Source of the DNA: a virus
Reading direction: 5' to 3' (one strand)
DNA length: 64,000 nt
IMG/VR virus record: IMGVR_UViG_3300042458_002038
Location: 9,721-73,720 of that record
Shown: in pieces, positions 10,280-28,894 of the stretch
Layout of the letters: each line of letters begins with the position of its first letter
Position numbering within the stretch: the first letter of the stretch is position 1
The notes under the pieces: generated by a model
The model's input: only the letters and a program-made list of their open reading frames with translations
Database searches by the model: none
Told to the model about the DNA's origin: nothing
Position numbers and translations under genes: made by a program

Positions 10280-11047
10280 TTATGCCGCAGGTGTTTTAGC
10301 GTCACGAGCAGTCTTCTTTAGTTTGTTTAATATTGCGCTATCGCCTGTAATCATACTAACCAATAGAACAAGAGTATCACCAATGATTTTCTTTTGTTCT
10401 TGAGTTGGAGGATGACCGCCTTCAATAGCTTTCATACCAAGAGCTGCTTTATTTGCATCGCCTGGAGTTAACAATCCAAGGATAGCCAACTGTTTGAATT
10501 TATAATAGTCAACTTCTTCGTCAAGTTGAGTTCCTTCGGTTTCAAACTCTTCGTTTTGCGCAGCATAATAAGCACCTAGTGCCATCTTGATGCGTTCCTT
10601 TTTACTCTTGCCTTCAAAACGTGGATCGGCACTCTTTACAAAATCGCTAATCCATACACCTGCATCATCGTCTGCGCTCAACTTCTCTTCAAGTGTTTCC
10701 TCAGTAACATTCTTCTTTTGTTGAACGGCAATTTTTTGAATACTTTTGATTGCATCGCCCATATGACCATATTCATATACTTGATTGCCGCTAACTACAA
10801 TATAAACATCGTCTTCAAGAATAGCAAACCATACGTCTGCCCACTTGCCAGCACGCATTGGAATACCAAACAAGTTAAGAATATCTTCTTTTGGAACACC
10901 TTTAAAGCCACGCAGGTCATTGCCTGTAGCCGCTTCAAAACCGAGCCCACGCAATGTGGTATTAAGAATCTTCCATGCGGTACCTTCTGTCAAGTTGGCG
11001 TCTTCAACAATGGAAGCTGAATTTAAGATTTGTGATAGTGTTTTCAT
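10280..11047 (-). CDS. hypothetical, probable internal head protein
   Basis: MKTLSQIL leader; multiple L/V-x-E sites; WISDFVKS..PRFEGKSKKERIKMALGAYY. Confidence 0.55.
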   Translation of the reverse strand: MKTLSQILNSASIVEDANLTEGTAWKILNTTLRGLGFEAATGNDLRGFKGVPKEDILNLFGIPMRAGKWADVWFAILEDDVYIVVSGNQVYEYGHMGDAIKSIQKIAVQQKKNVTEETLEEKLSADDDAGVWISDFVKSADPRFEGKSKKERIKMALGAYYAAQNEEFETEGTQLDEEVDYYKFKQLAILGLLTPGDANKAALGMKAIEGGHPPTQEQKKIIGDTLVLLVSMITGDSAILNKLKKTARDAKTPAA

Positions 11048-11727
11048 AAGAGTGTGAATTGTTTTGGGATTGAGATGTAGTTGGTTGTTTTATTGTAAAA
11101 AGCAATAGGATGTTGAGTAGCACCTGGGAGATCTTCAACTTGTAGCCGCAATAGGTTAGAGGTTTGGCCAGCAACCCAGCGGCCATGGTAGGTATCACCT
11201 ACTCTGCACCCGCCATGGCTTTCAACGCAGCGAATCTTAAAGCATTCACCTTCAACAATACCGCCTTCTTCATAGGAGTCTGGTGTATTTGCTTCAATGA
11301 ATGCGTGATACTTTTCTTTAATATCAAGAATGCTAAGGCTTTCAAAGTCGCCTGTGCTTTCAACAAAGGATGTGATCAAGTCATCATACGGACTATTTGT
11401 TGCAAGTTCAACAATACGCTTTTGGCGGGCGGTTTGTAAAGAGGATGTTTCAATGCTTTCAGGCATGACACTGCCAAACTCATTTGTTTCAATTCTACCA
11501 GAGAGCGGATTTTTAAATTTCACAGTATACATTGGGCCTACATCTCCAGCGTGAACACTTTTTTCTTTGTGATCAATCTTAAGGATTTTACCTTTGGCTG
11601 TAACCTCAGGACTTGTAGTTTTACCAGTTGACCAATTGTATGATCCACTGCTAACCGTAACTTTTACGGCGTCACCTACTTTAAGATTTGCAGAAGATTT
11701 AACTTCAGATAATTGATTTTCTTTCAT
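11044..11727 (-). CDS. hypothetical protein (N-terminal KOW/SH3-like)
   Basis: LKVGDAVKV; 4-nt overlaps with neighbours. Confidence 0.5.
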   Translation of the reverse strand: MKENQLSEVKSSANLKVGDAVKVTVSSGSYNWSTGKTTSPEVTAKGKILKIDHKEKSVHAGDVGPMYTVKFKNPLSGRIETNEFGSVMPESIETSSLQTARQKRIVELATNSPYDDLITSFVESTGDFESLSILDIKEKYHAFIEANTPDSYEEGGIVEGECFKIRCVESHGGCRVGDTYHGRWVAGQTSNLLRLQVEDLPGATQHPIAFYNKTTNYISIPKQFTLL

Positions 11728-12560
11728 ATTGTTTGTTCTAAGGTTAGGCGGAGATCCGCAACAAAAATTTTACTTTCATCTAGTGTATGTAGGTTCTTAC
11801 ACACCACATAGTTTGGTTTCTTTTCCAATACCATCAGTTCAGCTTCTCCGGTTTTGACGCTGTATATTACATCGCCTTTGTTGAAAATCTCGCCAGCAAT
11901 ATAGCGCTCGCGATTTTCTGAAATGGGTACAAATTGTACATGCTTGCGAAAGTTGTGGCTTTCTTTAAGTCCCAATCCAACTCGCACTGCATTAAACAAT
12001 TCTTTAACTTCACCAAATGTTTTGGGCACGCCTTTTGCAAAAGCTTCAAGGTCATTGTCTGCAGCGGCTGCTCGCATTTTGCTAGCGCTCATGCCGCTTA
12101 CGCCTTCGCTATCAGGATCGCGTTCTCCAGCACTCTTTACTTCAATGCCATCACGGAATGTATAGTAACCATGGCCAGCTTTAACAGCATCATATTTGTT
12201 TAGCAGCTTGGTGAATTCATCAATACGGTCACTGCCAACAACGAGTGTCAGTTTGGTATATCCAGCTTCATATGCTTTGACCGCAACATCAAATACATTC
12301 TTTACACCTTTATCGGATATAATGCTGCGTCCATATTGTGGAAACATTTTGCGAAGAAACTTGATCTTTTCTTCATAGGCCAATGGATTTTTAAGGTCAT
12401 GGCTTTGAGATGAATAGATTAGAAAGTTTTTACCTTTTGCAATTTTTGAGACCGCATCAAATAATTTTTCATGGCCAATAGTTGGTGGATTGTATCGCCC
12501 AAAGGTAACTACTACGCCATTAGTGCGTTCTTCAGTAAATGACTTAAAGGACTTGATCAT
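11724..12560 (-). CDS. cytidylyltransferase/NMNAT-like HxGH nucleotidyltransferase
   Basis: FGRYNPPTIGH, KNPL, VVGSDR, MSASKMR. Confidence 0.85.
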   Translation of the reverse strand: MIKSFKSFTEERTNGVVVTFGRYNPPTIGHEKLFDAVSKIAKGKNFLIYSSQSHDLKNPLAYEEKIKFLRKMFPQYGRSIISDKGVKNVFDVAVKAYEAGYTKLTLVVGSDRIDEFTKLLNKYDAVKAGHGYYTFRDGIEVKSAGERDPDSEGVSGMSASKMRAAAADNDLEAFAKGVPKTFGEVKELFNAVRVGLGLKESHNFRKHVQFVPISENRERYIAGEIFNKGDVIYSVKTGEAELMVLEKKPNYVVCKNLHTLDESKIFVADLRLTLEQTI

Positions 12561-12568
12561 ATTATGAT

Positions 12569-12796
12569 TTATAGGCTATCATCAACCGCTGTCAATGCGT
12601 CAAATTGTGCTTCAAGAGATTCATCACAAACACAAGGTTCACAATCGCATTCTGCACACTTGTCCTCAACAGCTTCGCCAAGTAGTCCACGGCGCCGCTT
12701 TTTATATTGGTAGGCAATCAATCCGATGGCGTCATCCCAAGACCCTTCGGTCTGGTCAACTACCATCAAGTCACGAAATGAAAACGGTTTACTCAT
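12569..12796 (-). CDS. small Cys-cluster late protein
   Basis: CAECDCEPCVC; TATAAATA at 12804-12811. Confidence 0.5.
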   Translation of the reverse strand: MSKPFSFRDLMVVDQTEGSWDDAIGLIAYQYKKRRRGLLGEAVEDKCAECDCEPCVCDESLEAQFDALTAVDDSL

Positions 12797-12811
12797 AGTA
12801 TTATATTTATA

Positions 12812-13483
12812 TTAGCGTCCTACTGCACCTTTCTGTGCATATTTAAGTTCCATCGCATTGCCAATATATTCTGCTTTGACTTTACTCAGGCCCTTTTTAA
12901 GTTTGCTTTTAACATCTGCTTCGCTGCCACCAATTGCCATCAGGAAACTGTCAACGGTGCCTTCACCAGCATGGAAGCTATAGTCATATGACGTATTGCC
13001 AATCACTTCACTCGGCAATGCTTTCCAGGTTGCTTCATCAACTATAAAACGATACTTTTCGGTAGGACGTACCACACCTACATGAGTGTATGTTTCTTTA
13101 ACTTCATCAATCAATGCATATTTTTCTGGGCTGCTTTGATATGCCGGCAATTCCACCATCTGTTTTGAAAGAGCAAGTAGTGTTTTGCTCTTGGGAGTAA
13201 AGAGATCAAGCATATAACTAAATACCGTAAAACGCAGGTCGTTTGCTTTATAGAATTTCTCCCATTGTTTGTCAATAAACATACCATCTGTACCTCCACC
13301 AGCGCCTTCAGTAGGGTCAATGTATTCAGCAAAGTTACCATACTTGTGGTCGATCTTTTGCGTTTCATACCGCAGCTCAGTTGCATTGATGCTAGATGCT
13401 GTTACCATATCACCAAACTTATGGGCTGTGCCTTCAAGTATAGCTCGTGCTATATTTACCAATGGGTCGTCTTGTATATTCAT
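12812..13483 (-). CDS. hypothetical protein
   Basis: 223-aa ORF translationally coupled to the upstream gene. Confidence 0.55.
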   Translation of the reverse strand: MNIQDDPLVNIARAILEGTAHKFGDMVTASSINATELRYETQKIDHKYGNFAEYIDPTEGAGGGTDGMFIDKQWEKFYKANDLRFTVFSYMLDLFTPKSKTLLALSKQMVELPAYQSSPEKYALIDEVKETYTHVGVVRPTEKYRFIVDEATWKALPSEVIGNTSYDYSFHAGEGTVDSFLMAIGGSEADVKSKLKKGLSKVKAEYIGNAMELKYAQKGAVGR

Positions 13484-14718
13484 TTTTGCCAGCCTTTGAT
13501 TATGTTTGGATCGAAATTGTTTTTACTAAATGTCATGCGGTCGACCAGTTTGACTGCGCCGCCTTTAAGATGGTCAATAGCAACAAAGCCTTCTTGACTG
13601 GTTACGCGGAATCCATCACTTGTTTTGACAAAGGTATTTATCTTTTTAAGGCTGTCAAGCTTTTGTATAATAATCAACTTGGCCTTGACAATAGCATTTT
13701 GTAACTGATACATCAAGTCAAGATTTGCTTTATTGGAAGCATTGAAAAATGCTAGGTAAGCATCTTTGCGCGCGCTTGCCGCAGCCTGACCTTTTTCACT
13801 TTTCTTGCTTGCTACATCAGCATCAAACTTTTTGGTTGCCCATGCAATAAGTCCATTTACATGAGCCTTTGTATCGGTTACGGTTTCTCCTTTGCGAACG
13901 TATGTGTTGTTGTATGTTTCAAGAGTAGTTGCAAATTCAGCATCCTGTTCGATAGCTTTTAGAGTGGTGCTGCTAATCTTTTGAAAGATCTTACCTGCTT
14001 CAGATAGTGCAGCCGTAACTTGTGCCGTATCAGCTGCTGTCAGTGTAGCCTTACCGCTCAGGTCATGGATGGTTGCATCTTGATACCATACACTAGGCAA
14101 CTTTTTAAGAGATCGTGTGTCAACGCCATAACTAGCAGTCATACTCTCAAAACTACTGCCATTGTATGATGTGTGAAATACAATGCCAAGATTTGCCTTC
14201 TTTAGCGTATCAGCCAATTCGCTTTCAGCTGGGACAGCATATGCAATGGTATTGGGTTGAAACACAACATACTTTTCTCCTTCAATACTAACCTTTTTTA
14301 GGTCACCTTTGGTAAACATCAGGTCGCCTTGTATAACATTCTTAATACCGAGTTTCTTTAGTTCGACGTAAGCAACACTCAGTTTGTCAGCAAGTTCGCC
14401 ACTTGTGTCTGCTTTTACATCAGCTATACTTTTATATACCTTTGGGTTCTTATTGAAGATACCTTTCTTAGCTACGAAGAATTGTCCGTCACTTGGATCA
14501 ACGCCACAGAACACGGCCGGAGCACCATCCCATTTGACAGTAACATCAACTGCTCCATTGCTGTTGCCAGCCAACATATCACGCAGGCTGCGCAGTGCAT
14601 TGATTGCATCCCGCGTTCCTTCAACACCTCCGTATAATACAGCATCCTCAAGATGCATAAGATGAACATTTTTACCAGGTGTGGTGGATTCAGACAGATA
14701 TTCTTTAAATGATTTCAT
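13480..14718 (-). CDS. DUF6267-like protein with ligase-type nucleotidyltransferase motifs
   Basis: HLMHLED, VKWDGAPAV, QGDLMF, EGFV, VKLVDRMTFS. Confidence 0.75.
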   Translation of the reverse strand: MKSFKEYLSESTTPGKNVHLMHLEDAVLYGGVEGTRDAINALRSLRDMLAGNSNGAVDVTVKWDGAPAVFCGVDPSDGQFFVAKKGIFNKNPKVYKSIADVKADTSGELADKLSVAYVELKKLGIKNVIQGDLMFTKGDLKKVSIEGEKYVVFQPNTIAYAVPAESELADTLKKANLGIVFHTSYNGSSFESMTASYGVDTRSLKKLPSVWYQDATIHDLSGKATLTAADTAQVTAALSEAGKIFQKISSTTLKAIEQDAEFATTLETYNNTYVRKGETVTDTKAHVNGLIAWATKKFDADVASKKSEKGQAAASARKDAYLAFFNASNKANLDLMYQLQNAIVKAKLIIIQKLDSLKKINTFVKTSDGFRVTSQEGFVAIDHLKGGAVKLVDRMTFSKNNFDPNIIKGWQK

Positions 14719-15365
14719 TGTTTATTTTTAAATTTTCTTCCTTTATAAAAGCCATCCGGTTGAGTTCCTTCGGTAACATATATGCTTAATGTTCCGTCAG
14801 TATACCATTTTAAATTCTTTTCTTTTACAATAGATCTACCAGCCATTGGATTTTTATCTCCGCTAAAGTCACGTTTTTCAGCAATACCTTTTTTAATTGC
14901 TTCTCGTCTAGCAATGGATTCTTCAGCTGTTAAATTTGCCCATGATTCAGTTACGCTTTTTGATACTTTATCACGCCATTTTGGATCGTCATATACGTCA
15001 CGAGATAGCTTTGAATTGCAAAAATGGCCATTCCAATTTCTATTAGTTTTTCGTTCTGATTCCGATAGGGTTGACCAGTATGATTTTAATAATTCAGAAT
15101 TACCACCCATTCCACCTTTATTTAAATTATAAAAGTCTTTAGATTCAACGGCATTATATTTAATAATCCAATAATCTTCAGCCTTGCATAATTCTTCAAA
15201 TGTAAAACATTCTTGCAGTATTTGTCTTTTAAAATTTTCTTTACCGTATTTTTTAATGCTCTGTTTTAGTAATGTACCGCTACCTAAATAATTAGGTGCC
15301 TCGCGTGTGCACATTCCAATATATTTCTTATTGTTAATTACGTTGGTAGTGAGGTATATAAACAT
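14715..15365 (-). CDS. free-standing GIY-YIG (Seg-like) homing endonuclease
   Basis: FIYLTTN...KYIG, YLGSG, KYGKENF, YNL..GG, GDKNPM; AT-rich; own late promoter. Confidence 0.88.
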   Translation of the reverse strand: MFIYLTTNVINNKKYIGMCTREAPNYLGSGTLLKQSIKKYGKENFKRQILQECFTFEELCKAEDYWIIKYNAVESKDFYNLNKGGMGGNSELLKSYWSTLSESERKTNRNWNGHFCNSKLSRDVYDDPKWRDKVSKSVTESWANLTAEESIARREAIKKGIAEKRDFSGDKNPMAGRSIVKEKNLKWYTDGTLSIYVTEGTQPDGFYKGRKFKNKQ

Positions 15366-15373
15366 AATGTTAT

Positions 15374-15433
15374 TTATAATATACCCACATTGAAGACGCT
15401 AGCTTCGGCTATGTGTTGTTTAAATGATAACAT
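15374..15433 (-). pseudogene. 19-codon orphan leader ORF MLSFKQHIAEASVFNVGIL
   Basis: First 21 nt nearly identical to the start of ORF 15435-16742; resembles a displaced gene 5' end. Confidence 0.5.
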
Positions 15434-15434
15434 A

Positions 15435-16742
15435 TTATTCTAATTTGATAAAAGGTGCGCTCAAGTCTGAACTGCTGCTTGCATATTGAATGCATGAAGT
15501 AATAAAATCATCTTCGCGATGACTGCTCTTGACTATATCTATAAGCTGACATCCTAGGAATTTGCTAAAGGCCCAGCTAACACCTTTGGCTTTACATTCT
15601 TCAACGAATGCGTTGTATTGCAACTTTGAAGAGTCCATCGAATAGCGTGTATAATTCTCGTAAAACTCTTTATACGTTTTCTCATCGCTTTCAGCCAATG
15701 CTTTACGTAAAGTTTTGATGTCAATCAGTTGCGGCAATCGAAGGTGACGCAATACAGTTTGAATTGGACCATAGCTAAGTTTACCTTGATTAGCATTCTT
15801 CCCTTTGATTTCGCCTTGGAAAGTTTCAGGAAAGGTACGGAATTGTATTTTGCCATTCTGTGAGAAATACATATAGATATCCTTACCGCTAAAGAATCCT
15901 TTATTGCCAGTTGTAAACTTGTCAAATTCAATGGTATGCTTTTCATCACCAGCATTGTAAGTTGACATCTTGACACCTCCTTTGAGCAGCTTTAGAGATA
16001 CACCAACTATATCACCAGCGCGCATTGCCTCAAGAAGCAATCCATTCAATTCTATAATATTTGTAGCAGCCGCAAGTTTAACCGCAGCACCAGCTGGCGA
16101 TACCATATAGATGTCAGCTGGACTCCATTTGTTGACATTCAAAAATATCTTTTCGGCACTGTTGAGTTTCTTGAATGTTTTTTCAAGTGACTCTACCCAG
16201 TCGCTGCCACGATGGAAAGTATAATTCTTTTTGCTGTATTTTTTATGCAATGCTTCAGCACCAAGAATACAGCTATCACGCCATGCTGGTGATAAACCAT
16301 TCAATATGTTTTCAAATGGTTCATCTACTTTGCAGCTGTTATATGCGCGTTCCAAATCAATAGCGGTATAGTTTTTGCTGCCAGCCCATCGGGCAGCTGC
16401 ATATACGGCTTGTGCACTTTCTGTAGTACGTGTAACATCTGCACCAGCACCTTTGCCGCCTCCTCCACCAAATTCTTTGGTTTTAGCAAAGTCTTTAAGA
16501 GCGTATGTTGCATCATCTTTAGCAGAATGGAAAACAATCTTGCCTGGGTTATTTTTAGCTTTAACGTCAGCTGCAGTCTTTGCGTCATAACGCAATACCA
16601 CTTCGCCACCCGCCGCTAATGTTAATGGTTGACTGTTCTTGTATTTGTCAAGAAACATGTCAACACGCCAATCATATTTGTATAGTTCGGCTGGTGCTAG
16701 GTTTGCACCTTCGGTCAAATAGTGTTGTTTAAATGATATCAT
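15435..16742 (-). CDS. putative PD-(D/E)XK-like nuclease with shared N-terminal module
   Basis: KWSPADIYMV...IVGVSLK; leader MISFKQHYLTE. Confidence 0.55.
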   Translation of the reverse strand: MISFKQHYLTEGANLAPAELYKYDWRVDMFLDKYKNSQPLTLAAGGEVVLRYDAKTAADVKAKNNPGKIVFHSAKDDATYALKDFAKTKEFGGGGGKGAGADVTRTTESAQAVYAAARWAGSKNYTAIDLERAYNSCKVDEPFENILNGLSPAWRDSCILGAEALHKKYSKKNYTFHRGSDWVESLEKTFKKLNSAEKIFLNVNKWSPADIYMVSPAGAAVKLAAATNIIELNGLLLEAMRAGDIVGVSLKLLKGGVKMSTYNAGDEKHTIEFDKFTTGNKGFFSGKDIYMYFSQNGKIQFRTFPETFQGEIKGKNANQGKLSYGPIQTVLRHLRLPQLIDIKTLRKALAESDEKTYKEFYENYTRYSMDSSKLQYNAFVEECKAKGVSWAFSKFLGCQLIDIVKSSHREDDFITSCIQYASSSSDLSAPFIKLE

Positions 16743-17653
16743 TTATATTCAATTCCTTTGCGTCCACCTACTGGACTGATTACAATGCGTGTGCCTTTTA
16801 CGCCAGCATCACTACGATCACCTTTGTATATAGCCATAAGAACCGGATCATATCCATCGCCATCTACGCTATCACCATTATAATGAACGTGATTGGCAGA
16901 CAATTCATAATGCTTACCCTTCTTGACGAGTTTAACTGGTCCTTGCAACAGCATGCTAACATTTTGTTGACCAAGTGTGCCACCGTACTTATTGCCATAT
17001 ACACTAAGCATTTTCAACTTGTCATCTTTAATTTTACGATATAGTGTAGTAGCAGGTGGCAAACCATCAGGATAATCTCTTTTAAGATCGGCTATAAATT
17101 TTTGAGTTTCTTTGTGAGCAAAAATTGTTGGTTCTTTTGCTGAACTTATACCACCCCATTGTTGAAAGTCTTTTGCTTTATTGCCATCTTTATGTGATAG
17201 CCAAACAATCTCTTTGCCGTCAATATCCAATAAGTGAAAGTCGCTCTTAGGAGTTCCTGCAGTACTAGCTGCACCATACACATCATAAGTTTTATTGCCA
17301 ACTTTTATTTTGATTGTAGCAGCGGCAATGTCGCTTTTTGCAGCATCAATTTGTTCTATCAAAGAAGCCAATTCGCGGTCCTCTTTAACAGTTCCGCCGC
17401 CGCTACCACGCCCACCAAATTCTGAATTTTTTGCAATATCCTTTAGCGAATATGTATTGCCTTTGCCATCAAGTAATCGTATAGCGCTTGTGGGCAGTCT
17501 TTTGGTAATGATGTTGATAACGTCTTTAGCTGGTATGAATACCACTTTTTTGCCATTCTCCAATTCAAACGCTTCACTGTTCTTAAGTTTTTTAAGAAAA
17601 ACTTCGGCACGCCAATCGTACTTATATAATTCTTTTCCGGCTAAGTTTGACAT
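16739..17653 (-). CDS. putative PD-(D/E)XK-like nuclease with shared N-terminal module
   Basis: TPKSDFHLL...VWLSHK, FQQWGG; TATAAATA at 17669-17676. Confidence 0.55.
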   Translation of the reverse strand: MSNLAGKELYKYDWRAEVFLKKLKNSEAFELENGKKVVFIPAKDVINIITKRLPTSAIRLLDGKGNTYSLKDIAKNSEFGGRGSGGGTVKEDRELASLIEQIDAAKSDIAAATIKIKVGNKTYDVYGAASTAGTPKSDFHLLDIDGKEIVWLSHKDGNKAKDFQQWGGISSAKEPTIFAHKETQKFIADLKRDYPDGLPPATTLYRKIKDDKLKMLSVYGNKYGGTLGQQNVSMLLQGPVKLVKKGKHYELSANHVHYNGDSVDGDGYDPVLMAIYKGDRSDAGVKGTRIVISPVGGRKGIEYK

Positions 17654-17671: not shown

Positions 17672-18127
17672 TTATACCAAAGGGTATTTGGATATAAATG
17701 CGGCTGATAAAGCTGGCTCTAAAGTGTTTGCTTCTATTTCCCACGGGCATTCTTCATAGTCGGTATTGTCAGCATAATTTTTACCTTTCCATCGCGCACA
17801 ATATCCTGAATATAACATCCTCAATTCTCCACGAGAAAACTGTTTGATATGAATCATTTCATGTGCAAGAGTGCGTATTAGAGTATCAGTATCATTATCA
17901 TTATAGTCTAGACGAATTGTATAATAATCATTGTGCTGTGACGCATCCAAATCATAGCATTCACCGTATGTATTTTCATTAGCCAACATACCCTTGACCA
18001 ATTTTATACGTATTTCGATGTTACGCTTACGCGGAATCAACGCCTTCAAAAAGAAAACGGCTGCAGCACCAATGCGACGTTTTAATCGCTTATCTGCGCC
18101 GCAGCCGTATATACTAAATTTAATCAC
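17672..18127 (-). CDS. zincin-like metallopeptidase
   Basis: TLAHEMIHIKQ...PWEIEA. Confidence 0.75.
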   Translation of the reverse strand: MIKFSIYGCGADKRLKRRIGAAAVFFLKALIPRKRNIEIRIKLVKGMLANENTYGECYDLDASQHNDYYTIRLDYNDNDTDTLIRTLAHEMIHIKQFSRGELRMLYSGYCARWKGKNYADNTDYEECPWEIEANTLEPALSAAFISKYPLV

Positions 18128-18133
18128 TGAGGG

Positions 18134-19666
18134 TCAAGCATATGATTCAATCATTCGTGACAGTTCGGCATCACTAATTTCAACGCCACTTGCAATAGCA
18201 CCAGCACTCATGTTTAGGCCGCGTGATAATTTACGAAGGTTAGCACTTTGTTTGCTCTTGCCTTTGCGCAACAGGTCAACAACATGCTTACGTGCTTTAT
18301 CATCCAGCTGAAGACCATCCTCAAGAGTAATCTTACCAACAATTTTATCCATGAAATCATAAATTTCAGCTTCAGTTGGATCAATATTGATAATGAACGC
18401 ACGAGTACGCAGCGCGCCATCAGGATCAAGTTTGTTTAATGGAAGGTTACTAATAAAAATAACTTTACCTGTAAATTCAAAATAACGCGGAATCAAGCCT
18501 GCATCAAGAATTTCTTCATCGGTCATGTCATCAGGATCAGCAACATTTTTACCCATTTTGTTCCACACCAACTTACGAATCTTCTTGGTATCGGTAGCGG
18601 CCTTCAACAAGTTGCGTGCTTCTTGATCACCCAATGCATCGTCGGAATCATCAAAGAAGATGATCTTATCCTTATAGCGGAACAGCAATGAGTATAAACC
18701 AGCAGCGCTCGCACTACCAGTATTTTTAAAGTAACCAGCGCCATCGCGCAATCCAAGGTTACTAAGGATTTGTTCGGTTGTATGTGTTTTACCAACGCCA
18801 CCTTTACCACTGACAAACAATGCATTGGCAGCACCGCTAACAGTCATTTTAACTAGATTCTCTAGGTCGACCAATTGAGCTTCAAAGGTGAGGCGCTCTT
18901 GATCGCTTTCAAGAGCGTTGATCTCTTGAGATATAACATACTTTTCTTTAGCAGAGCCACGCGTTACCTTTGCTTCAACACTGCCAGTTGCATCAAGCAG
19001 CGCACCTTGTTCTTTGCGAATCTTTTCGATGTCCTTTGCTTTACCAGCCCATGTGAACTTTGTGCCAGTCTTGACAAACAGCGATGGGTATGAGGTTTCA
19101 AGCTGATCAAAAATCTTCTGACCAGCACTCTTGTGTTTGGTATATACCTTGCCTTTTGCGAAGGAAGGTTCGGTAACCATATCCAAGATATCATTAAGAA
19201 TATCTACTGGGCTAGCGGCTTCAGCTAAAAAATCATAATTAAAATCTTCGTTGAGTGGCACATCATCAGGCATGGTACGAATCTTGCCCAGCTCAATGCT
19301 GTTGTTTTTAAGTGCATCTGCAATGAGTGGCAATACTTTAACAACGCTTACAGTCTGATCAAATTCAATATGGAAAGGTGCTGGTGTTTTACCATTCCAA
19401 AAATCAATGCTTGCAAGATTTGAATAGCCAGCTTGACTAGTGCTTTTCCAGTTGAAACGCAATGACATATTCTTTTTGCTAGAATAGAAACGCAAACCAA
19501 AGCCTGCTCCATCAGCGTTCTTAAATGCTTCAAGGCCAGGATAACGAAACAGGATTACACCAGTTTTCTTCTTTAGATATTTAGCAATTAGGAATGCTGA
19601 TTTATCGACTGACGAGGTTGACATGGCCTCAGCCAAATAACTTTTAAAACTTACTACGTTTGACAT
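18134..19666 (-). CDS. P-loop AAA-type ATPase (late)
   Basis: GKGGVGKT, IIFFDDSD, VIFISN; TATAAATA at 19673-19680. Confidence 0.8.
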   Translation of the reverse strand: MSNVVSFKSYLAEAMSTSSVDKSAFLIAKYLKKKTGVILFRYPGLEAFKNADGAGFGLRFYSSKKNMSLRFNWKSTSQAGYSNLASIDFWNGKTPAPFHIEFDQTVSVVKVLPLIADALKNNSIELGKIRTMPDDVPLNEDFNYDFLAEAASPVDILNDILDMVTEPSFAKGKVYTKHKSAGQKIFDQLETSYPSLFVKTGTKFTWAGKAKDIEKIRKEQGALLDATGSVEAKVTRGSAKEKYVISQEINALESDQERLTFEAQLVDLENLVKMTVSGAANALFVSGKGGVGKTHTTEQILSNLGLRDGAGYFKNTGSASAAGLYSLLFRYKDKIIFFDDSDDALGDQEARNLLKAATDTKKIRKLVWNKMGKNVADPDDMTDEEILDAGLIPRYFEFTGKVIFISNLPLNKLDPDGALRTRAFIINIDPTEAEIYDFMDKIVGKITLEDGLQLDDKARKHVVDLLRKGKSKQSANLRKLSRGLNMSAGAIASGVEISDAELSRMIESYA

Positions 19667-19686
19667 ATATGTTATTTATAATAAAG

Positions 19687-21958: not shown

Positions 21959-21987
21959 ATTATAATATATTTTCTTCTGTTTGTAAA
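21959..21987 (-). promoter_or_regulatory. promoter for the uvsX C-half, embedded in the endonuclease 3' end
   Basis: TTTACA-N17-TATAAT, 8 nt before the ATG. Confidence 0.7.
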
Positions 21988-22838
21988 GGTCTTTTTTTAC
22001 ATTTATCGCCATGCCATCTTTTAAAATTTGATGTGTCTATATCTCTATTGCAATGCTTGCATGTTTGCATTTGAAGACCTTGAGTAATTACTTTATAACG
22101 ATATGGGTTAATCCATTCATCGGAATCTAGCTGTATTGCTTCATGTTTACTGACACGGATATTTTCACCAGTGATAACATTTTTTAATGTTACAAGATCA
22201 GATCTACCTATTTTAGCTTTCCATTCTGGAGTGCGGTTTATTTTAGCTACATTTTCTCTAAACCATTCAATATCTTCAGGCTTTCTTTTATTGCCTTTAT
22301 TTTTATCTCCAATAATTTTTCTAGTTTCTTCAGTATGGGTTTTTCCATAAAAACCGTTATCTTTACCAGAACGAATGATTTTTTGTTTGGTTTCTTCTGA
22401 TAATTTATTGCCAAACGTCACACCAACATATTCACCATTTAATACTGATGAGTCATCTCTGGAAAGTCTAACAATCTTTCCAGTTTCTTTGTTTTTATAT
22501 GTAGCATAATTTGGATTATGAAATGTATTTTCCATTGCTATAGATTTATTAAAATATTCCGGTGATGACACTGCAGATACTTTTATTTGTTCTTCCGCTT
22601 CACGCTGAAGAACTTTTTCATAATCTTCAGACGAATATAAAATTTCTATTTCACATATATCAGATTGCACCATCTCTTTATAGTTTTCCCATGTTGAAGA
22701 TCCATAATAAGGTTTATTACGGCCGTCATATATTATGCCATTCTTAAAAGAGCAATTTGACTTTGATCCAATATAAAGGTATGGTAAAATACCAGCAACT
22801 TTGCGTTTACTAAATGTTATTTTATATACTAAGTTCAT
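21960..22838 (-). CDS. free-standing GIY-YIG homing endonuclease with NUMOD3 repeats
   Basis: LVYKI...YIGSK...YYGSS; GFYGKTHTEETRKII; C-terminal CKHC...RWHGDKC; AT-rich. Confidence 0.85.
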   Translation of the reverse strand: MNLVYKITFSKRKVAGILPYLYIGSKSNCSFKNGIIYDGRNKPYYGSSTWENYKEMVQSDICEIEILYSSEDYEKVLQREAEEQIKVSAVSSPEYFNKSIAMENTFHNPNYATYKNKETGKIVRLSRDDSSVLNGEYVGVTFGNKLSEETKQKIIRSGKDNGFYGKTHTEETRKIIGDKNKGNKRKPEDIEWFRENVAKINRTPEWKAKIGRSDLVTLKNVITGENIRVSKHEAIQLDSDEWINPYRYKVITQGLQMQTCKHCNRDIDTSNFKRWHGDKCKKRPLQTEENIL

Positions 22839-23816: not shown

Positions 23817-25088
23817 TTATAACAGGTTTTTCTTGGAATGTAAACTAAAAAATTCATCAAGTTCATGAGAATTATTTAGCAGCACACGTGTAGGATATTC
23901 AACCGTCTTATTCTTATTGCTTTGTTTGGTATAGTTACTTTCACTCCAAGTAACATCGCCATCAAGATACTTTACTACATTAAGCATCATATCACGAGCT
24001 GTACTTACAGGTACATTTTGGCAGATGTGATTAATCTTGGTTTTAAGCGGGTGCAATGATGCAAGATTAAAGTCTTCAGGCATCTTCATAACACGGAGAC
24101 AGTCACGTACAGTTGGAAAGCTTTGAGTAAATGGATTAATCATCCAGAATGGCAATGCTCCAATCAGACTAGGAATAATACCTTTGACCATAGTAATGCC
24201 ATGCGCCCAGTAACCCATACCTTTTGCACGTTTAGCGGCCATATCCCGAGCACGTCCTGCAGTTTTAGTATAACCATTCGCATCCATCCATTCCGATACA
24301 ACTGTAAGATTATCACCTAAGCCGCCGTCGGCCCAGACAATAAGATTCTGTGTATCATCCAGGGTGTCATATAGTTCTTTAATATCTTTAGTACCAGTCT
24401 TGTGCATGGCGTATGCAGCCCAACCATTGGTATTGGGATCGTCTTCATTGCAAGAGATATTCATTGGATCACCATCAGCATATGCCATATTAAAGATGTT
24501 TTCAATGGGTTCTCCAGGAACATTAAACCAACTAAATAACGGAGCAGATGTACTCTTAGTAAAGAAGTAGAATGTGCGGCCGCGCTTTTGAGACAGGCCG
24601 TGAAGGCGGCTTTCAGTATAATACAAGTTTAAGCTATACCCATACTTTTCGCCGATAGCAAACAAACGGTCTGCGACTTTTTTACCCATGTTGCTGTATA
24701 AACGTGGAGCATTCTCGCCCCAAAATACTTTAGGACCTACTTTATCAAGTACATATTCAGCAGTGGTATACAACCATTCATTAACTGCACTATCTGCACT
24801 GCTTGCAGTGCTAAGGCTGCTCAAACCAGCACAAGGGCAGGTGGAATTTACAACATCAACCGATTCTGGTACATAATCAGGCTGTTTGTCAAGGTGAATA
24901 TAGTCACCAGTCCATCCTTTTGTGTTGCGGATGTATTGAATGTAGTGATCATCATTGCTTGCAAAGGGACTATATGATAATACGTATTCTGGAAGTTGTC
25001 CATCTAGTGCTTCCATGACTCCAAGTGATTCACCGCCAATAAGCGGTACGATTGATGCGTATGTGTATTTCTTTTGTGCGTTCTCCAT
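23817..25088 (-). CDS. DNA (cytosine-5)-methyltransferase-like protein
   Basis: PLIGG (degenerate motif I), PCAGLS (IV), ENAP (VI), QKRGRTF (VIII), QNVP (X-like). Confidence 0.75.
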   Translation of the reverse strand: MENAQKKYTYASIVPLIGGESLGVMEALDGQLPEYVLSYSPFASNDDHYIQYIRNTKGWTGDYIHLDKQPDYVPESVDVVNSTCPCAGLSSLSTASSADSAVNEWLYTTAEYVLDKVGPKVFWGENAPRLYSNMGKKVADRLFAIGEKYGYSLNLYYTESRLHGLSQKRGRTFYFFTKSTSAPLFSWFNVPGEPIENIFNMAYADGDPMNISCNEDDPNTNGWAAYAMHKTGTKDIKELYDTLDDTQNLIVWADGGLGDNLTVVSEWMDANGYTKTAGRARDMAAKRAKGMGYWAHGITMVKGIIPSLIGALPFWMINPFTQSFPTVRDCLRVMKMPEDFNLASLHPLKTKINHICQNVPVSTARDMMLNVVKYLDGDVTWSESNYTKQSNKNKTVEYPTRVLLNNSHELDEFFSLHSKKNLL

Positions 25089-25096
25089 AAATTGAT

Positions 25097-26380
25097 TTAT
25101 AGGACTTTGCCGGGACCCGTAATCTTATTCAATGCAGCTAGCGTAACATCATTCAAATGCTCACCAGAATAGTATGATGGCTTTAACATAGTATCAAGAG
25201 TATCGCGCAACTTAGTATATGCGTCTGGATTACTTTCAAGATATGCAATCTTATCAAACAGGTCTTTACTGTCCTTTACACGCAAGAACTGTGGAGCATT
25301 TAAATGGTTTTGTTCATCATAAGTTGGATGCAGGAATGGTATGATTCCATAATGAGCCATCTCCCAGAACTTCATGGTGACCCATCCTTTTTTGATAGGA
25401 ATGCAATAAGTATATTTTACGCGGGGCAGCATGCTTTGCAATTCATGGAACGGTAAGCTGCCTTTAAAACGAGAGTCTGTTCCAATAGTACGCTCATCCC
25501 ATTTGCCATAGATTGCTACATCTTGTACATGGTTAAGAATGGTTTCTTTCAACAGGTTGTATCGTGATGGTCGCCCCTCATTGAGAACAATCATAAAGTT
25601 GATGTCTTTTATACCAGCCGGCTCTGGTATGTCTTCACCAAAGAATGTATCCAACGACGAAGTTTCCGTTTCGGCGCTTTGCTTTTCTTTATCTTGTCCA
25701 ATAAGAAAGATGGTTTCCATTGCACTATAGGTACTGGGAATGGTGTGCACTACCGTTTCATTGTCTGTATAGTTTTTACGAACTGTTACACGCGTATCTT
25801 CATCATATTGTGACAAGACAATGGTTGGCATATGAATCCAATCGCGTGCATTAGGAGGCCAGAAGCGTGGATCATTTACAATGAGAATGTATGGGATGTG
25901 GCGATTATCATTCATCCAATCCGTCATGGGTGCAACATATTTGCATAACATTTCAAGAGGACTTGCAACCTCACTAGGGTTACGCATTTTGGTAACCTTA
26001 AATGGAATGTTGGTAGTACCGGTTGGACCAGTAAATACAACACCAGCATCAAACTTTACATGATTGAGTGCAACATATTCTTTAAGGTATTCTATATTGT
26101 GTAATTTACTGTCCATTGGATTGTTCTTTTTCCAATCCACAAACTGCTTACCCCAAATGTCAACCACATTACCATTCGCATTGATGCGTTGCTTTTCGCT
26201 GCTGCTTAGACGTGAAAAGTCATTGCAACCCAACAGGTAAAATGTAATGCTAGGATTACGCGCAAATAGGTTTTCATAATACTTGGGCGCTTCGCAGTCA
26301 CCGCCAATATTCCCCCATGAATCGCGATTAAACAATATGCTCTTGCCAATCTTTCCTACATATACATTCATATTATCCAA
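25097..26380 (-). CDS. GT-B DNA glycosyltransferase (T4 BGT-like)
   Basis: IVNDPR and VTMKFWEMAHYG resemble T4 BGT FTDIR and LRVWETMAS; located in the hmC cluster. Confidence 0.7.
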   Translation of the reverse strand: MDNMNVYVGKIGKSILFNRDSWGNIGGDCEAPKYYENLFARNPSITFYLLGCNDFSRLSSSEKQRINANGNVVDIWGKQFVDWKKNNPMDSKLHNIEYLKEYVALNHVKFDAGVVFTGPTGTTNIPFKVTKMRNPSEVASPLEMLCKYVAPMTDWMNDNRHIPYILIVNDPRFWPPNARDWIHMPTIVLSQYDEDTRVTVRKNYTDNETVVHTIPSTYSAMETIFLIGQDKEKQSAETETSSLDTFFGEDIPEPAGIKDINFMIVLNEGRPSRYNLLKETILNHVQDVAIYGKWDERTIGTDSRFKGSLPFHELQSMLPRVKYTYCIPIKKGWVTMKFWEMAHYGIIPFLHPTYDEQNHLNAPQFLRVKDSKDLFDKIAYLESNPDAYTKLRDTLDTMLKPSYYSGEHLNDVTLAALNKITGPGKVL

Positions 26381-27392
26381 TCTTAACGCTGTCTGTATTC
26401 AAGTCAACCATGTAGGTTAGAGGATCAATGCCGCCGCGCTCAATTTCTTTTTCAAGGTAGGCAATTGTATCATCAAGTGCAGTTGAGATACTTTTCTTTG
26501 GGCACCAGCCAAGCGAGAGCGCCTTGCGAATATCCGCAAATATTTCAAATGCTTCACCGTTGATTTCCGGCATAAAGGTATATTCTACTGCATCTGGCAC
26601 TTCATATCCACGCGCTTTAAGTACACCTGCAACAGCATCACCAATTTCAAATAGGCTACAACTTTGTCCACGCCCAAGATTGTATGTTTGGCCAATAGTG
26701 CGATCATCGGTTAAGCATTGAACGTGAAAAGCATTCACGTCATCAACATGAATAAAGTCCCTACGACGTTGGCCATCGCCGAAGATGATTGGGTTGTTAC
26801 CTCCCATCATGCGAATAGCAAAGCCGGCAAACAGTGGAGGCACAGTGCGCTTGTAGTCTTGAATAGGCCCTGCAATATTAAAGTAACGCAATGCAGTATA
26901 GCGCAATCCTTTGGTGCGTGCATAACTTTCAGCAAGCAATGCAACAGCTGCTTTAGTGCTTGCATACACTGTAGTAGGATCGCTTTGGCCTTCAAAATAA
27001 CCATCTTGTAGCAGCTCACAATTTTCATATACTGCACTCGTCTCAGAGAAAACAACGCGTGGGCAACCGGCTGCAAGCAGTGCATCAAATACATTTACAC
27101 TACCAACAATGTTGTTGTCAACCGCACTTGATGTGTCACGATGGCAATCATAAATGCTAACCAAGCCTGCAAAGTGAAAAGTAATGTCAGGTTTGATATT
27201 GCCAATGTGTAAATGCATTGCTTCACGGTCACGAATATCGCATTTGAAAAAACGGACACGATCATGCACTTCAGGGATATATGAGCCGTGCGCAAGATTG
27301 TCAATTACAATCACATCATGCCCTAGTTCTAACAAATCAGGAATAAGATTTGTTCCGACGAAGCCGCAGCCTCCAGTAATAAGTATCTTCAT
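26373..27392 (-). CDS. NAD-dependent nucleotide-sugar epimerase/dehydratase
   Basis: ITGGCGFVG, YASTK, LRYFN, RDFIHVDD. Confidence 0.9.
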   Translation of the reverse strand: MKILITGGCGFVGTNLIPDLLELGHDVIVIDNLAHGSYIPEVHDRVRFFKCDIRDREAMHLHIGNIKPDITFHFAGLVSIYDCHRDTSSAVDNNIVGSVNVFDALLAAGCPRVVFSETSAVYENCELLQDGYFEGQSDPTTVYASTKAAVALLAESYARTKGLRYTALRYFNIAGPIQDYKRTVPPLFAGFAIRMMGGNNPIIFGDGQRRRDFIHVDDVNAFHVQCLTDDRTIGQTYNLGRGQSCSLFEIGDAVAGVLKARGYEVPDAVEYTFMPEINGEAFEIFADIRKALSLGWCPKKSISTALDDTIAYLEKEIERGGIDPLTYMVDLNTDSVKIG

Positions 27393-27408
27393 AGAGTTAT
27401 ATATGTGG

Positions 27409-27864
27409 TTAATTTTTCTTTGCAATGACGCGCGATCTCAATTCACTTGTAGAGAAACTGTGTCTTCTTTTGTTGTAATGGATTGGGCAAAGGTCTTTTC
27501 CGGTGTGATTGGTACCTTGGTATTCCTCGCCAACAATGCGCACATCAGGATTGATTGTAAGAATCATATCTTCCAGATCCTTTTCGGTTTCAAAGGGAAT
27601 AATTTCGTCCACATATTTGCATGCTGATACTTGTAGGTATCGCTCAAATACACTTTGAACTGGTGCGTTCTTTGTATCAGCACGATCCTTTGTGGGATCA
27701 ACCAATAATCCTACAATTAGATAGTCACACAATTGTTTTGCTTCCATAAGCATAACGGTATGACCTGCATGAAAGAGATCAAATGTTGATGCCGTAAAGC
27801 CTATACGAATTTCTTCAATGGGTTTGCCAATAAGTTTAGCCAGTGATTGTTTGTCGAGCAGCAT
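27409..27864 (-). CDS. TagD/HldE-C-like cytidylyltransferase
   Basis: STFDLFHAGH, CDYLIVGL, RRHSFSTSELR. Confidence 0.88.
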   Translation of the reverse strand: MLLDKQSLAKLIGKPIEEIRIGFTASTFDLFHAGHTVMLMEAKQLCDYLIVGLLVDPTKDRADTKNAPVQSVFERYLQVSACKYVDEIIPFETEKDLEDMILTINPDVRIVGEEYQGTNHTGKDLCPIHYNKRRHSFSTSELRSRVIAKKN

Positions 27865-28894
27865 TGATTTTATTTTTTAAGTGTTGTAGTAAAGATGGTT
27901 TGTCTTTTGCATATGGATACATTCTGCAAAGGTGACCAATCTCATGTGCTTTGAGAACCTCAAACTCAATGTTTGAATAATATTCAATATGATCCAATTG
28001 ACCATCTAGTGGATCATTTAGCGCAATTGATGTATATAGTTTAGCAATGTCTATAACCCATGAGCTGTAAAGAGTAGGGTCATTGATTGGGTCAATGAAA
28101 TATGCCGAAGTGGAATCGTTAGGGCCACTCATAATATTGCTAACGCTACAATCACCATGAGAGAATGTGGCTGGTGTTTGACGCATAGCTTCGCTCAGCA
28201 TAAGGTATATGAAGCTATAGTCTTCTAAAGATAATACATCTTTGACGCGATCTCGGCAACGTGCAATATATGAATCGGCGCTAACAGGTTCAGATTGCAG
28301 AGGCGGATGAGAAGCGAAGGTATGAACGGTTTCCAGCACGTCGGTTATGTCACCACTGTATGTATGCAAATATTGCATACGAATAGTATCACCAATAACA
28401 CTATGCACCCCTGGGACATTATAACCATACCATCGCGCGGCCTCAAACCATCGCACAACACTCTGTGTATTTTTTGATGTCTTGTAGACGCTGTCAGTTA
28501 CTTTATCATAATACACAGAGTCACCACTCCAACCACCAACCAAACGAGTGCGCTCAAAACTTTTAACAAATTGTTCTGGTGTAATACCTTTGTCATCAAT
28601 ATAGTATGCTGCCAGCTTCTTTTGGAAGCTAAGCGAGCTATACTTTACATCATGCTGCGCAAGCCAGCTCTCAATTTGTGCTCTGTACTTGAGATCGGCC
28701 GCTTCACAATCACCATTACATGAGAGTTGACCTCGTGCGGTAACAATATGAATGCTCCAGCCATCATCACATAAAGCATTGAGTTTGTTGACAAGCGCAA
28801 CATTTGGCATTGCATTTACCCAATCACGATTGTGAGTAATAGCAATGGTATCATCAAAGTCAACAACAAGAGTGGTTGTATAGTCTGAAATCAT
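27836..28894 (-). CDS. HAD phosphatase fused to APH/choline-kinase-like domain
   Basis: VDFDDTI, TARG, YIDDK; C-terminal HGDCSVSN, FIDP. Confidence 0.8.
   Translation of the reverse strand: MISDYTTTLVVDFDDTIAITHNRDWVNAMPNVALVNKLNALCDDGWSIHIVTARGQLSCNGDCEAADLKYRAQIESWLAQHDVKYSSLSFQKKLAAYYIDDKGITPEQFVKSFERTRLVGGWSGDSVYYDKVTDSVYKTSKNTQSVVRWFEAARWYGYNVPGVHSVIGDTIRMQYLHTYSGDITDVLETVHTFASHPPLQSEPVSADSYIARCRDRVKDVLSLEDYSFIYLMLSEAMRQTPATFSHGDCSVSNIMSGPNDSTSAYFIDPINDPTLYSSWVIDIAKLYTSIALNDPLDGQLDHIEYYSNIEFEVLKAHEIGHLCRMYPYAKDKPSLLQHLKNKINAARQTITG

Follow-up and report, generated by a model that had tools for sequence, protein, structure and literature searches.

What does the DUF6267 protein do, which is among the commonest uncharacterised proteins of marine T4-like phages, and why does its gene lie close to that of a second predicted nucleotide-handling enzyme? 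Both genes are found in a 64-kb stretch (hereafter the window) of a 73.7-kb viral contig from IMG/VR, IMGVR_UViG_3300042458_002038, the completeness of which is estimated at about 41%. All genes of the window are on the minus strand, and the coordinates given below refer to that strand of the window unless a related locus is named. The initial annotation had placed a DUF6267-like protein and a nucleotidyltransferase with an HxGH motif (the HxGH protein) here and had interpreted them as an unrecognised ligase and an NMNAT-like enzyme of one virion-delivered pathway. Both open reading frames (ORFs) are present as claimed: that of the DUF6267 protein (412 residues, 13480-14718) and, 919 bases downstream, that of the HxGH protein (278 residues, 11724-12560). 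The nearest isolate is phage C48C1 (Kyanoviridae, OQ984149), the DUF6267 protein of which is 56% identical to that of the window; a megablast search with the region retrieved no isolate phage. On balance, we consider it somewhat probable that the phage is a T4-like marine myovirus and that the genes belong to its late-expressed cargo module, in which a ligase-type DUF6267 enzyme and an HxGH adenylyltransferase are packaged into the phage head.

Motifs, predicted fold and probable superfamily of DUF6267

The window protein is a full-length member of Pfam family PF19782 (DUF6267, E 2.4e-102). This was its only Pfam match at E values up to 0.1, and NCBIfam returned nothing. It is a very large family: 2,612 clusters at 50% identity were found when 1.84 billion cluster representatives were scanned in full, a word-index search gave at least 8,000 matches, and tblastn located homologues in 431 isolate genomes, mostly of Synechococcus and Prochlorococcus myoviruses. 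In the literature searched, no paper mentioning DUF6267 was found.

Conservation was assessed in an alignment of 109 sequences, comprising 108 near-full-length representatives (34-63% identity) and the window protein. Fourteen of the 412 columns are invariant (H22, K62, D64, G72, K85, D132, Y160, G178, H182, E376, G377, K390, F397 and N401). Four motifs of the RNA/DNA ligase and capping-enzyme superfamily had been read from the protein sequence, and codon translation returns each of them in the claimed order. Motif I is KWDG (residues 62-65, 14524-14535), in which K62, the predicted nucleotidyl-accepting lysine, and D64 are present in 109/109 sequences and G65 in 108/109. Motif III is QGD within IQGDL (residues 130-132, 14323-14331; Q130 104/109, G131 107/109, D132 109/109), and motif IV is EGFV (residues 376-379, 13582-13593; E376 and G377 109/109). 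Motif V is VKL (residues 389-391, 13546-13554; K390 109/109), and is followed by V-D-R394 (R394 107/109). Because K62, D64, D132, E376, G377 and K390 are all invariant, the motifs are not chance strings. Two other invariant residues, K85 (14464-14466, 109/109) and Y160 (14239-14241), fall at the expected places of motifs Ia and IIIa and are candidates for the basic and the aromatic residue of these motifs, respectively. Near the N-terminus, the string HLMHL (14650-14664) is part of a conserved N-x-H-x-x-H-x-E-D element (H19 106/109, H22 109/109, E24 96/109, D25 88/109).

Four cluster representatives (P0142, P0199, P0225 and P0264) start inside an apparent intein C-terminus (...DI.TE..NF......LVHN), followed by Ser (SPA). 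The call rests on the C-terminal ...VHN/SPA blocks of these four sequences, which show the classic block F/G pattern. The DUF6267 match resumes at the residue after KWDG; therefore, the apparent intein is placed directly after this motif, at a position where Ser occurs naturally in 19/109 relatives. A scan of viral contigs with P0142 returned only intein-free relatives, including L026 and L075, which were read individually. Since inteins typically sit in catalytic motifs, we count the insertion at KWDG as support for a catalytic role.

An AlphaFold2 model, for which the conservation alignment was the input, has a pLDDT of 93.7 and a pTM of 0.90. Motifs I, III, IIIa, IV and V are located on successive strands in the order expected for the nucleotidyltransferase fold, with motif III on strand 128-136 and Y160 on strand 159-163. 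The two halves of the core are separated by a helical insertion (residues 228-357, 13648-14037; model helices 228-355) with a net charge of +3, the family mean being +6.4. A leaderless 294-residue form from phage S-SCSM1 (MK867354; L091 1495-2379) keeps KMDG, QGD, EGF and VKLVDR without most of this insertion, indicating that the insertion is not part of the catalytic core.

The model was compared with 48,161 representative chains using an aligner independent of Foldseek. Among the matches listed, all alignments longer than 170 residues were to ligases: the RNA ligases REL1 (Z 8.4, 195 residues), Trl1 (8.1, 198), NgrRnl (8.1, 187), T4 Rnl2 (7.7, 180) and T4 Rnl1 (7.2, 178), and the Sulfolobus DNA ligase (6.8, 173). 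The insertion gave short helical-bundle matches. When the top 1,000 Foldseek matches were re-aligned, about 44 of the best 50 entries were ligases, and RNA ligases (NgrRnl, Z 8.1-8.6, root-mean-square deviation (rmsd) 3.7-3.8; Trl1, 209 residues aligned) scored above DNA ligases (5.8-6.8; human LIG1, 6.4-6.8). In both searches, the long alignments (170-209 residues, Z 6-8.6) were almost exclusively to ligases. A viral structure library gave weaker matches to annotated phage RNA ligases. The comparison with Rnl1 and Rnl2 that the initial annotation had proposed, made on the predicted structure, points to a ligase-like fold.

Over the five RNA ligases NgrRnl (Rnl5), T. brucei REL1, T4 Rnl2, fungal Trl1 and T4 Rnl1, the DUF6267 core aligns across 178-209 residues with Z 7.2-8.6 and rmsd 3.7-4.7. 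The PDB titles of NgrRnl mutants name K170, D172, E227, E312 and K326 as catalytic residues. K170 and D172 of its KxDG motif can be likened to KWDG of DUF6267, the acidic motif III and the EG of motif IV are likewise common to both, and the 14-residue spacing between E312 and K326 equals that between E376 and K390. Like these RNA ligases, DUF6267 has no DNA-ligase-type OB domain. In contrast, it has no detectable sequence-profile similarity to them, and where they carry an appended N- or C-terminal domain, it has a helical module of ~130 residues between the motif IIIa region and motif IV. Its single-lysine motif V followed by V-D-R, its Asp in motif III, its invariant N-terminal H-x-x-H-x-E-D element and its head-targeting leader are also unlike theirs, and its activity is a prediction from the model. 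The NAD+-dependent DNA ligase LigA belongs to the same superfamily; its adenylation domains are among the weak Foldseek matches (E 0.2-1, 15-17% identity, ~108 columns) and outside the best 50 by Z, and DUF6267 gives no Pfam DNA_ligase_aden signal. Motif V of LigA has a single lysine, and to our knowledge LigA is the only ligase class tied to the product of NMNAT.

Several results speak against a ligase-type enzyme. Foldseek ranked DNA ligases first in the PDB, but with E values of 0.09-1, and structural Z-scores of 6-8.6 are within the range that, according to the tool, unrelated models can reach. Searches of all PDB sequences with phmmer and a hidden Markov model of the family found no ligase, only low-complexity matches in the helical insertion, and hhalign found no link between the family profile and T4 Rnl2, either as a single sequence or as a shallow profile of 33 sequences with 55-99% identity (profile probability 0.3%). 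The KxK form of motif V is absent: there is a single invariant lysine, and the residue two after K390 is Val or Ile in 109/109 sequences, although R394 may substitute for the second lysine. The acidic residue of motif III is Asp (D132), whereas Glu is usual, and motif IV has no trailing lysine. No OB domain or motif VI was found: about 20 residues follow motif V, and the model ends in a helix (394-402). In addition, the window contig has no match to PF09414, PF01068 or PF01653 at E values up to 0.1, and an ESM Atlas feature search with DUF6267 returned only unnamed viral clusters.

With these points taken into account, the invariant motifs, the confident model and the long structural alignments, nearly all of them to ligases, uphold the earlier proposal of an unrecognised ligase or covalent nucleotidyltransferase. 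We judge that DUF6267 quite probably belongs to the covalent nucleotidyltransferase (ligase) superfamily, while the narrower prediction that it joins strands as a true ligase falls just short of probable. Judged from the model, it is structurally nearest to the ATP-dependent RNA ligases; by predicted fold it is closest to Rnl2/Rnl5 and Rnl1/Trl1, but by sequence it falls in none of these families. Four features make its architecture its own: a helical module set into the core, a motif V with one lysine, an N-terminal element of His and acidic residues, and the tag for the head. The assignment gives DUF6267 a direct and cheap biochemical test, and it matters for phages that otherwise have no recognisable ligase.

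The HxGH protein and its linkage to DUF6267

The 278-residue HxGH protein matches phrog_395 ('cytidyltransferase') with an E value of 2.8e-62. The two motifs reported for it, TIGH and SASKMR, are both returned by codon translation. TIGH (residues 27-30, 12471-12482) is the HxGH/HIGH motif, in which G29 is invariant and T27 and H30 are at least 90% conserved. SASKMR (residues 158-163, 12072-12089) is the second nucleotide-binding motif, of the ISSTxxR type, with invariant S158, K161 and R163. Further invariant residues are G21, R22 and P25. The AlphaFold2 model (pLDDT 85) consists of a catalytic domain (residues 13-201) and a small C-terminal beta domain (residues 229-270). The Foldseek matches of the small domain include retroviral integrases at a TM score of ~0.15, and many relatives carry DUF5824 in its place.

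Foldseek matched the model to NaMNAT, NMNAT and PPAT structures at E values of 2e-4 to 2e-3 with a probability of 1.00, and NaMNAT ranked first by less than 2-fold in E value. By Z-score, over ~150-165 residues and a listed range of 13.2-11.4, PPAT (13.2-12.1) and NadD/NMNAT (12.4-11.5) are tied. The sequence scores 20.9 bits against Pfam CTP_transf_like, the cut-off of which is 21. Among PDB sequences, a plant NMNAT comes closest (E 0.043, 47 residues), and the only NCBIfam models listed are of the NMNAT type, at 12.9-16.9 bits against cut-offs of 112-397. With PPAT (CoaD), NadD, archaeal NMNAT and NadM, the HxGH protein has in common the compact Rossmann fold of the HIGH superfamily and the T/H-x-G-H and S-x-x-x-x-R motifs; it differs from them in its head-targeting leader and the extra beta domain. 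Based on its model, it is an adenylyltransferase of the HIGH superfamily, of the PPAT/NMNAT type.

The label 'NMNAT-like' of the initial annotation is therefore no better than PPAT-like (Z 12.4 versus 13.2), and the protein scores far below the NMNAT family cut-offs. We dropped NMNAT as a family assignment on the cut-offs and the tie with PPAT, and retain it only as a lean. TagD (glycerol-3-phosphate cytidylyltransferase), the usual database label, was also dropped, because no TagD or GCT structure was among the best matches, which is weak evidence; the label 'cytidylyltransferase' is no better founded than NMNAT-like. The annotated start of the 'cytidyltransferase' of C48C1 (L002 9688-11031), MNPPTIGH..., leaves out the first strand as well as a leader, if there is one. 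As ...FTFGR is encoded immediately upstream, the deposited start is probably too far downstream.

The 919 bases between the two genes hold a 223-residue ORF and a 75-residue ORF. The pairing noted in the initial annotation recurs widely: in 61 of 80 related viral loci, an HxGH gene lies downstream of DUF6267 on the same strand, typically 300-560 nucleotides away, and among the 19 loci without one, most of them on truncated contigs, the downstream DNA is shorter than 1.7 kb in 16. The gap in the related loci holds a small protein starting ..SFKDF or ..SFRDL, which in most relatives has a long Arg/Lys-rich tail; 53 intervening ORFs start with ..SFKDF..VDY.PGE and continue into a basic tail. The 75-residue ORF of the window (12569-12796), which begins MSKPFSFRDLMVVD, is a short version of this protein, without the basic tail. 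The Arg/Lys-rich tail (e.g., L002 9254-9625; L007-L086) is reminiscent of the basic internal proteins of T4.

The two proteins also occur fused. The profile of phrog_455 spans both window proteins in series, which was the first hint of fused forms. DUF6267 precedes the HxGH domain in P0123, P0152, P0179, P0259 and P0269, and follows it in P0200, P0235 and P0270. P0125 joins a P-loop kinase of the AAA_33/Zeta type to DUF6267. A match in the viral structure library, a 591-residue protein of phage S-PM2, is named as containing a cytidyltransferase-like domain.

Putative head-targeting leaders and late-promoter motifs

Both enzymes carry the SFK..E leader that had been noticed at their N-termini, and it is kept across both families. 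In DUF6267, it is MKSFKEYLSE (residues 1-10, 14689-14718), a T4-type capsid-targeting sequence by its likeness to T4 ipII and ipIII, with a putative protease site after Glu10. In the HxGH protein, it is MIKSFKSFTEE (12528-12560), which is nearly universal in 120 homologues and is located directly before the first strand. By a loose test, the leader is present on DUF6267 in 74/80 related loci and on the HxGH protein in 58/61. It is detached and of low confidence in both AlphaFold2 models (pLDDT <50 for residues 1-12 of DUF6267). A scan of the 132 minus-strand ORFs for the leader pattern found four N-termini (starts 12560, 14718, 16742 and 19666), where chance would give 0.26, and the four cluster in a single 8-kb block (11.7-19.7 kb). 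The other two belong to a 435-residue protein (15435-16742; phrog_1462, phrog_13937) with the leader MISFKQHYLTE and to a 510-residue protein (18134-19666; phrog_1250) with the leader MSNVVSFKSYLAE. The four leaders end in LSE, TEE, LTE and LAE. Past its leader, the 435-residue protein is paralogous to a leaderless 304-residue neighbour, which indicates that the tag is a separable module. In C48C1, the leader is found on DUF6267, on the small basic protein (MLSFKQFVSE) and on another neighbour.

In the T4 genome, a search with a degenerate pattern found that ipII and ipIII, annotated internal virion proteins, both begin with MKTYQEFIAE, which is identical or conservative to MKSFKEYLSE at 10/10 positions. 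T4 internal proteins attach to the scaffold core via their tag, which gp21 removes by cleavage behind a Glu residue; the ITE and LTE sites of Alt are examples (PMC5694885; PMC3012670). The likeness extends to T4 IPI, IPII, IPIII and Alt as a group: a ten-residue N-terminal tag ending in hydrophobic-x-Glu, as at gp21 sites, one tag on diverse cargo encoded in one block, and late-type expression. Alt is also a precedent for an injected enzyme. Whereas the T4 internal proteins are small basic inhibitors, the cargo here is predicted to consist of nucleotide-handling enzymes, which would be processed and injected in the same way. Complete relatives encode a prohead protease of the Peptidase_S77 family (C48C1, E 1e-40; S-SZBM1, E 1e-36).

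The T4 late-promoter motif TATAAATA occurs 12 times in the window, always on the minus (coding) strand, compared with 4.7 expected over both strands, and most copies are 5-26 nucleotides before a start codon. One copy (12804-12811), 8 nucleotides upstream of the 75-residue ORF, would serve this ORF and the HxGH gene, and another (15371-15378) is upstream of a homing-endonuclease gene and DUF6267. Further copies precede the 510-residue gene by 7 nucleotides (19673-19680), the 304- and 435-residue genes (17669) and a virion structural gene (9306). Expression of the block is thus predicted to be late-type.

Homologues of the HxGH protein have been detected by mass spectrometry in the virions of S-SZBM1 (two peptides), S-CREM2 (three peptides) and S-SCSM1 (PMC9146016, PMC10665884, PMC9602691). 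The authors of the S-SCSM1 study also cite S-CBWM1 and noted that NMNAT-like proteins recur in cyanophage virions. The virion association of this family is thus already published; in the literature searched, no paper linking capsid-targeting sequences to cyanophage enzymes was found. Together with the IPII/IPIII-like leader and the late-promoter motifs, these reports back the idea of virion delivery put forward in the initial annotation.

Packaging of DUF6267 itself meets with contrary observations. Its presence is not reported in the published virion proteomes searched, and no prohead protease gene was found on the window contig, which is ~41% complete. The homologue in S-SZBM1, SSZBM1_141, has no leader and is absent from the text and the virion table of that paper. 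Leaderless forms such as SSZBM1_141 and the 294-residue S-SCSM1 protein indicate that packaging is not essential to DUF6267 as a family. The neighbouring SSZBM1_140, which does bear the leader, is listed in the virion table; a listed tagged protein beside an unlisted leaderless one fits the tag hypothesis, but the evidence is thin. Judged from the leaders, both enzymes of the window are probably injected with the phage DNA.

The presence of one T4-type tag on these proteins suggests that the injected cargo of these phages extends beyond small inhibitor proteins to a kit of nucleotide-handling enzymes. If so, the role of 'internal proteins' widens, and the leader sequence could serve as a rule by which injected cargo is predicted in phages that have not been cultured. 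Such a short tag, portable between enzymes, is also of practical interest for loading proteins into phage heads.

Possible roles of the cargo block and its neighbouring genes

The catalysis, cleavage, injection and ligation chemistry of the cargo enzymes are inferred, and the following scheme is a proposal. By analogy with the ligase superfamily, Lys62 of KWDG would attack the alpha-phosphate of a nucleotide donor to form a covalent enzyme-nucleoside monophosphate (NMP), with D132, E376 and K390/R394 holding the nucleotide and metal. The NMP would be passed to a 5'-phosphate end, which would then be sealed to a 3'-OH. The positively charged helical insertion might take over the part of an OB or C-terminal nucleic-acid-binding domain, which DUF6267 lacks. 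The HxGH neighbour would use ATP to adenylylate a small molecule that carries a phosphate. Loading, trimming and ejection are proposed because the leader is of the T4 capsid-targeting type and ends in (hydrophobic)-x-Glu. The tagged proteins, that is, both enzymes and at least two others of the block, would load onto the scaffold core of the prohead, be trimmed by a gp21-type protease, and stay in the DNA-filled head. The enzymes would then be ejected into the host with the genome and could act before any phage gene is expressed.

A closer coupling can be imagined, in which the HxGH protein makes an AMP-X dinucleotide (NAD+ or an analogue) from ATP and the ligase-like enzyme uses AMP-X as its AMP donor, in the way LigA uses NAD+, releasing X-phosphate for re-adenylylation. 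We regard such a cycle as improbable. If true, it would allow virion-delivered sealing of RNA or DNA ends at once, independently of the host NAD+ pool that abortive-infection systems deplete, and DUF6267 would be both the first injected ligase and the first enzyme of RNA-ligase fold to have a partner dedicated to regenerating its cofactor. The junctions of the extended DUF6267 proteins weaken the case for a common chemistry. P0125 (...MGKTFTDFITE/QKNT) and P0169 (...MQSFKEFLSE) keep a full internal leader before DUF6267, most other N-terminal extensions end in hydrophobic-x-Glu (SILE, SVME, LLIE) just before KN.H..H.ED, and P0251 has an internal MKSLKEFLVDE after the DUF6267 domain. The fusions may therefore be cargo polyproteins processed by the prohead protease, a reading that accounts for both fusion orders and for the varied partners (a P-loop kinase, DUF5824 and modules without a known family) without coupled chemistry. 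The 'two-enzyme pathway' of the initial annotation is thus not supported as stated, since fusion may reflect co-packaging; that the two enzymes act in one pathway is plausible. The functions it had suggested, namely RNA repair, capping or NAD+ resupply, are conjectural.

These junctions and partners are what would be expected if the two enzymes were independent cargo, neighbours or fused only through the joint encoding of head-targeted proteins and directed at unrelated targets after injection. The tagged block holds unrelated proteins too. With DUF6267 at ~221 kb and the NMNAT-like virion protein encoded by ORF91 (of 293 features), the two genes are probably not adjacent in S-SCSM1. The order DUF6267, small basic protein, HxGH is nevertheless kept in 61/80 loci, the fusions occur in both orders, and in several fusions (P0123, P0238) the junction shows neither a leader nor an evident site; we hold this explanation to be rather unlikely, though one to be taken seriously. 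A different role is suggested by the complete genomes of C48C1 and S-SZBM1, which have no match to PF01068 or PF01653 (C48C1 also none to PF09414), while T4 gp30, the positive control, was detected at E 9e-35. DUF6267 is therefore the only ligase-superfamily candidate in these two genomes. It could be the phage's own nick-sealing DNA ligase for replication or recombination, replacing T4 gp30, with the leader and packaging being secondary. Its gene adjoins replication and recombination genes (a gp41-type helicase and UvsX), leaderless forms exist (SSZBM1_141 and the 294-residue S-SCSM1 protein), and DNA ligases are among the structural matches (Z 5.8-6.8). However, RNA ligases outscore DNA ligases, an OB or DNA-binding domain is lacking, a replication enzyme would hardly be expected to have late-promoter motifs and a head-targeting leader, and the linkage to a small-molecule adenylyltransferase is left unexplained. 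We consider this role unlikely overall. Owing to the absent conventional ligases and the leaderless forms, it is a real rival for part of the DUF6267 family, but it fits the tagged, late-promoter form of the window less well.

The motifs are common to the whole superfamily, including capping enzymes, motifs IV and V depart from the usual ligase form, and the nucleotide donor cannot be read from the sequence. DUF6267 might thus be a capping-like or other nucleotidyl-transfer enzyme that uses GTP or another nucleoside triphosphate and transfers NMP to a protein or to the end of an RNA or DNA without joining strands. We think this distinctly unlikely, as the Pfam and PHROG matches of the block include neither a triphosphatase nor a methyltransferase that could act as a partner, and capping enzymes are missing from the top 50 structural matches in both searches, although the latter is weak evidence. 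An internal head protein without catalytic function, whose ligase likeness is a relic or fortuitous, would be compatible with the moderate Z-scores and the lack of profile similarity. It is very improbable in view of the residues needed for nucleotidyl transfer, which are invariant down to ~35% identity, the intein at the KWDG site and the size of the family, with its 2,612 clusters. We therefore retain the late-expressed cargo module with a ligase-type DUF6267 enzyme as our interpretation of the block.

The genes around the pair include those of the gp41-type helicase, the UvsX recombinase and a virion structural protein, and the neighbourhood in the T4-like cyanophage S-SZBM1 is similar. A GIY-YIG homing-endonuclease gene (14715-15365; Pfam GIY-YIG and SegE_GIY-YIG; phrog_314, E 3.4e-30) immediately precedes DUF6267 and overlaps it by 4 nucleotides. 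Its wedged position suggests a mobile insertion into the cargo block. It is one of two GIY-YIG/homing-endonuclease genes in the window (the other at 21960-22838), each with its own TATAAATA.

The 510-residue protein has a weak P-loop NTPase signal (AAA_16, E 1.9e-5, below the cut-off) and, by its leader, looks like a further tagged cargo protein. The untagged 304-residue protein (16739-17653) is related through its N-terminus to the 435-residue protein past the leader, and both match phrog_13937. By protein-language features, the nearest named clusters of this pair are HpaII/HaeIII restriction endonucleases (0.84), which is a lead only. Inside the tagged block, a 151-residue protein without a leader (17672-18127) has an HExxH motif and weak matches to SprT-like or IrrE-type metallopeptidases (E 0.005-0.016; phrog_10499). 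A 255-residue protein on the other side of the HxGH gene (10280-11047), which has no family match, begins with MKTLSQILNS..., a looser likeness to the T4 tag MKTYQEFIAE, and may be a degenerate tagged cargo protein. Farther away, a run of DNA- or sugar-modification genes (23817-28894) encodes a C5 cytosine DNA methylase (PF00145, E 4.8e-11) and glycosyltransferase-like, nucleotide-sugar epimerase and phosphoheptose-isomerase-like proteins.

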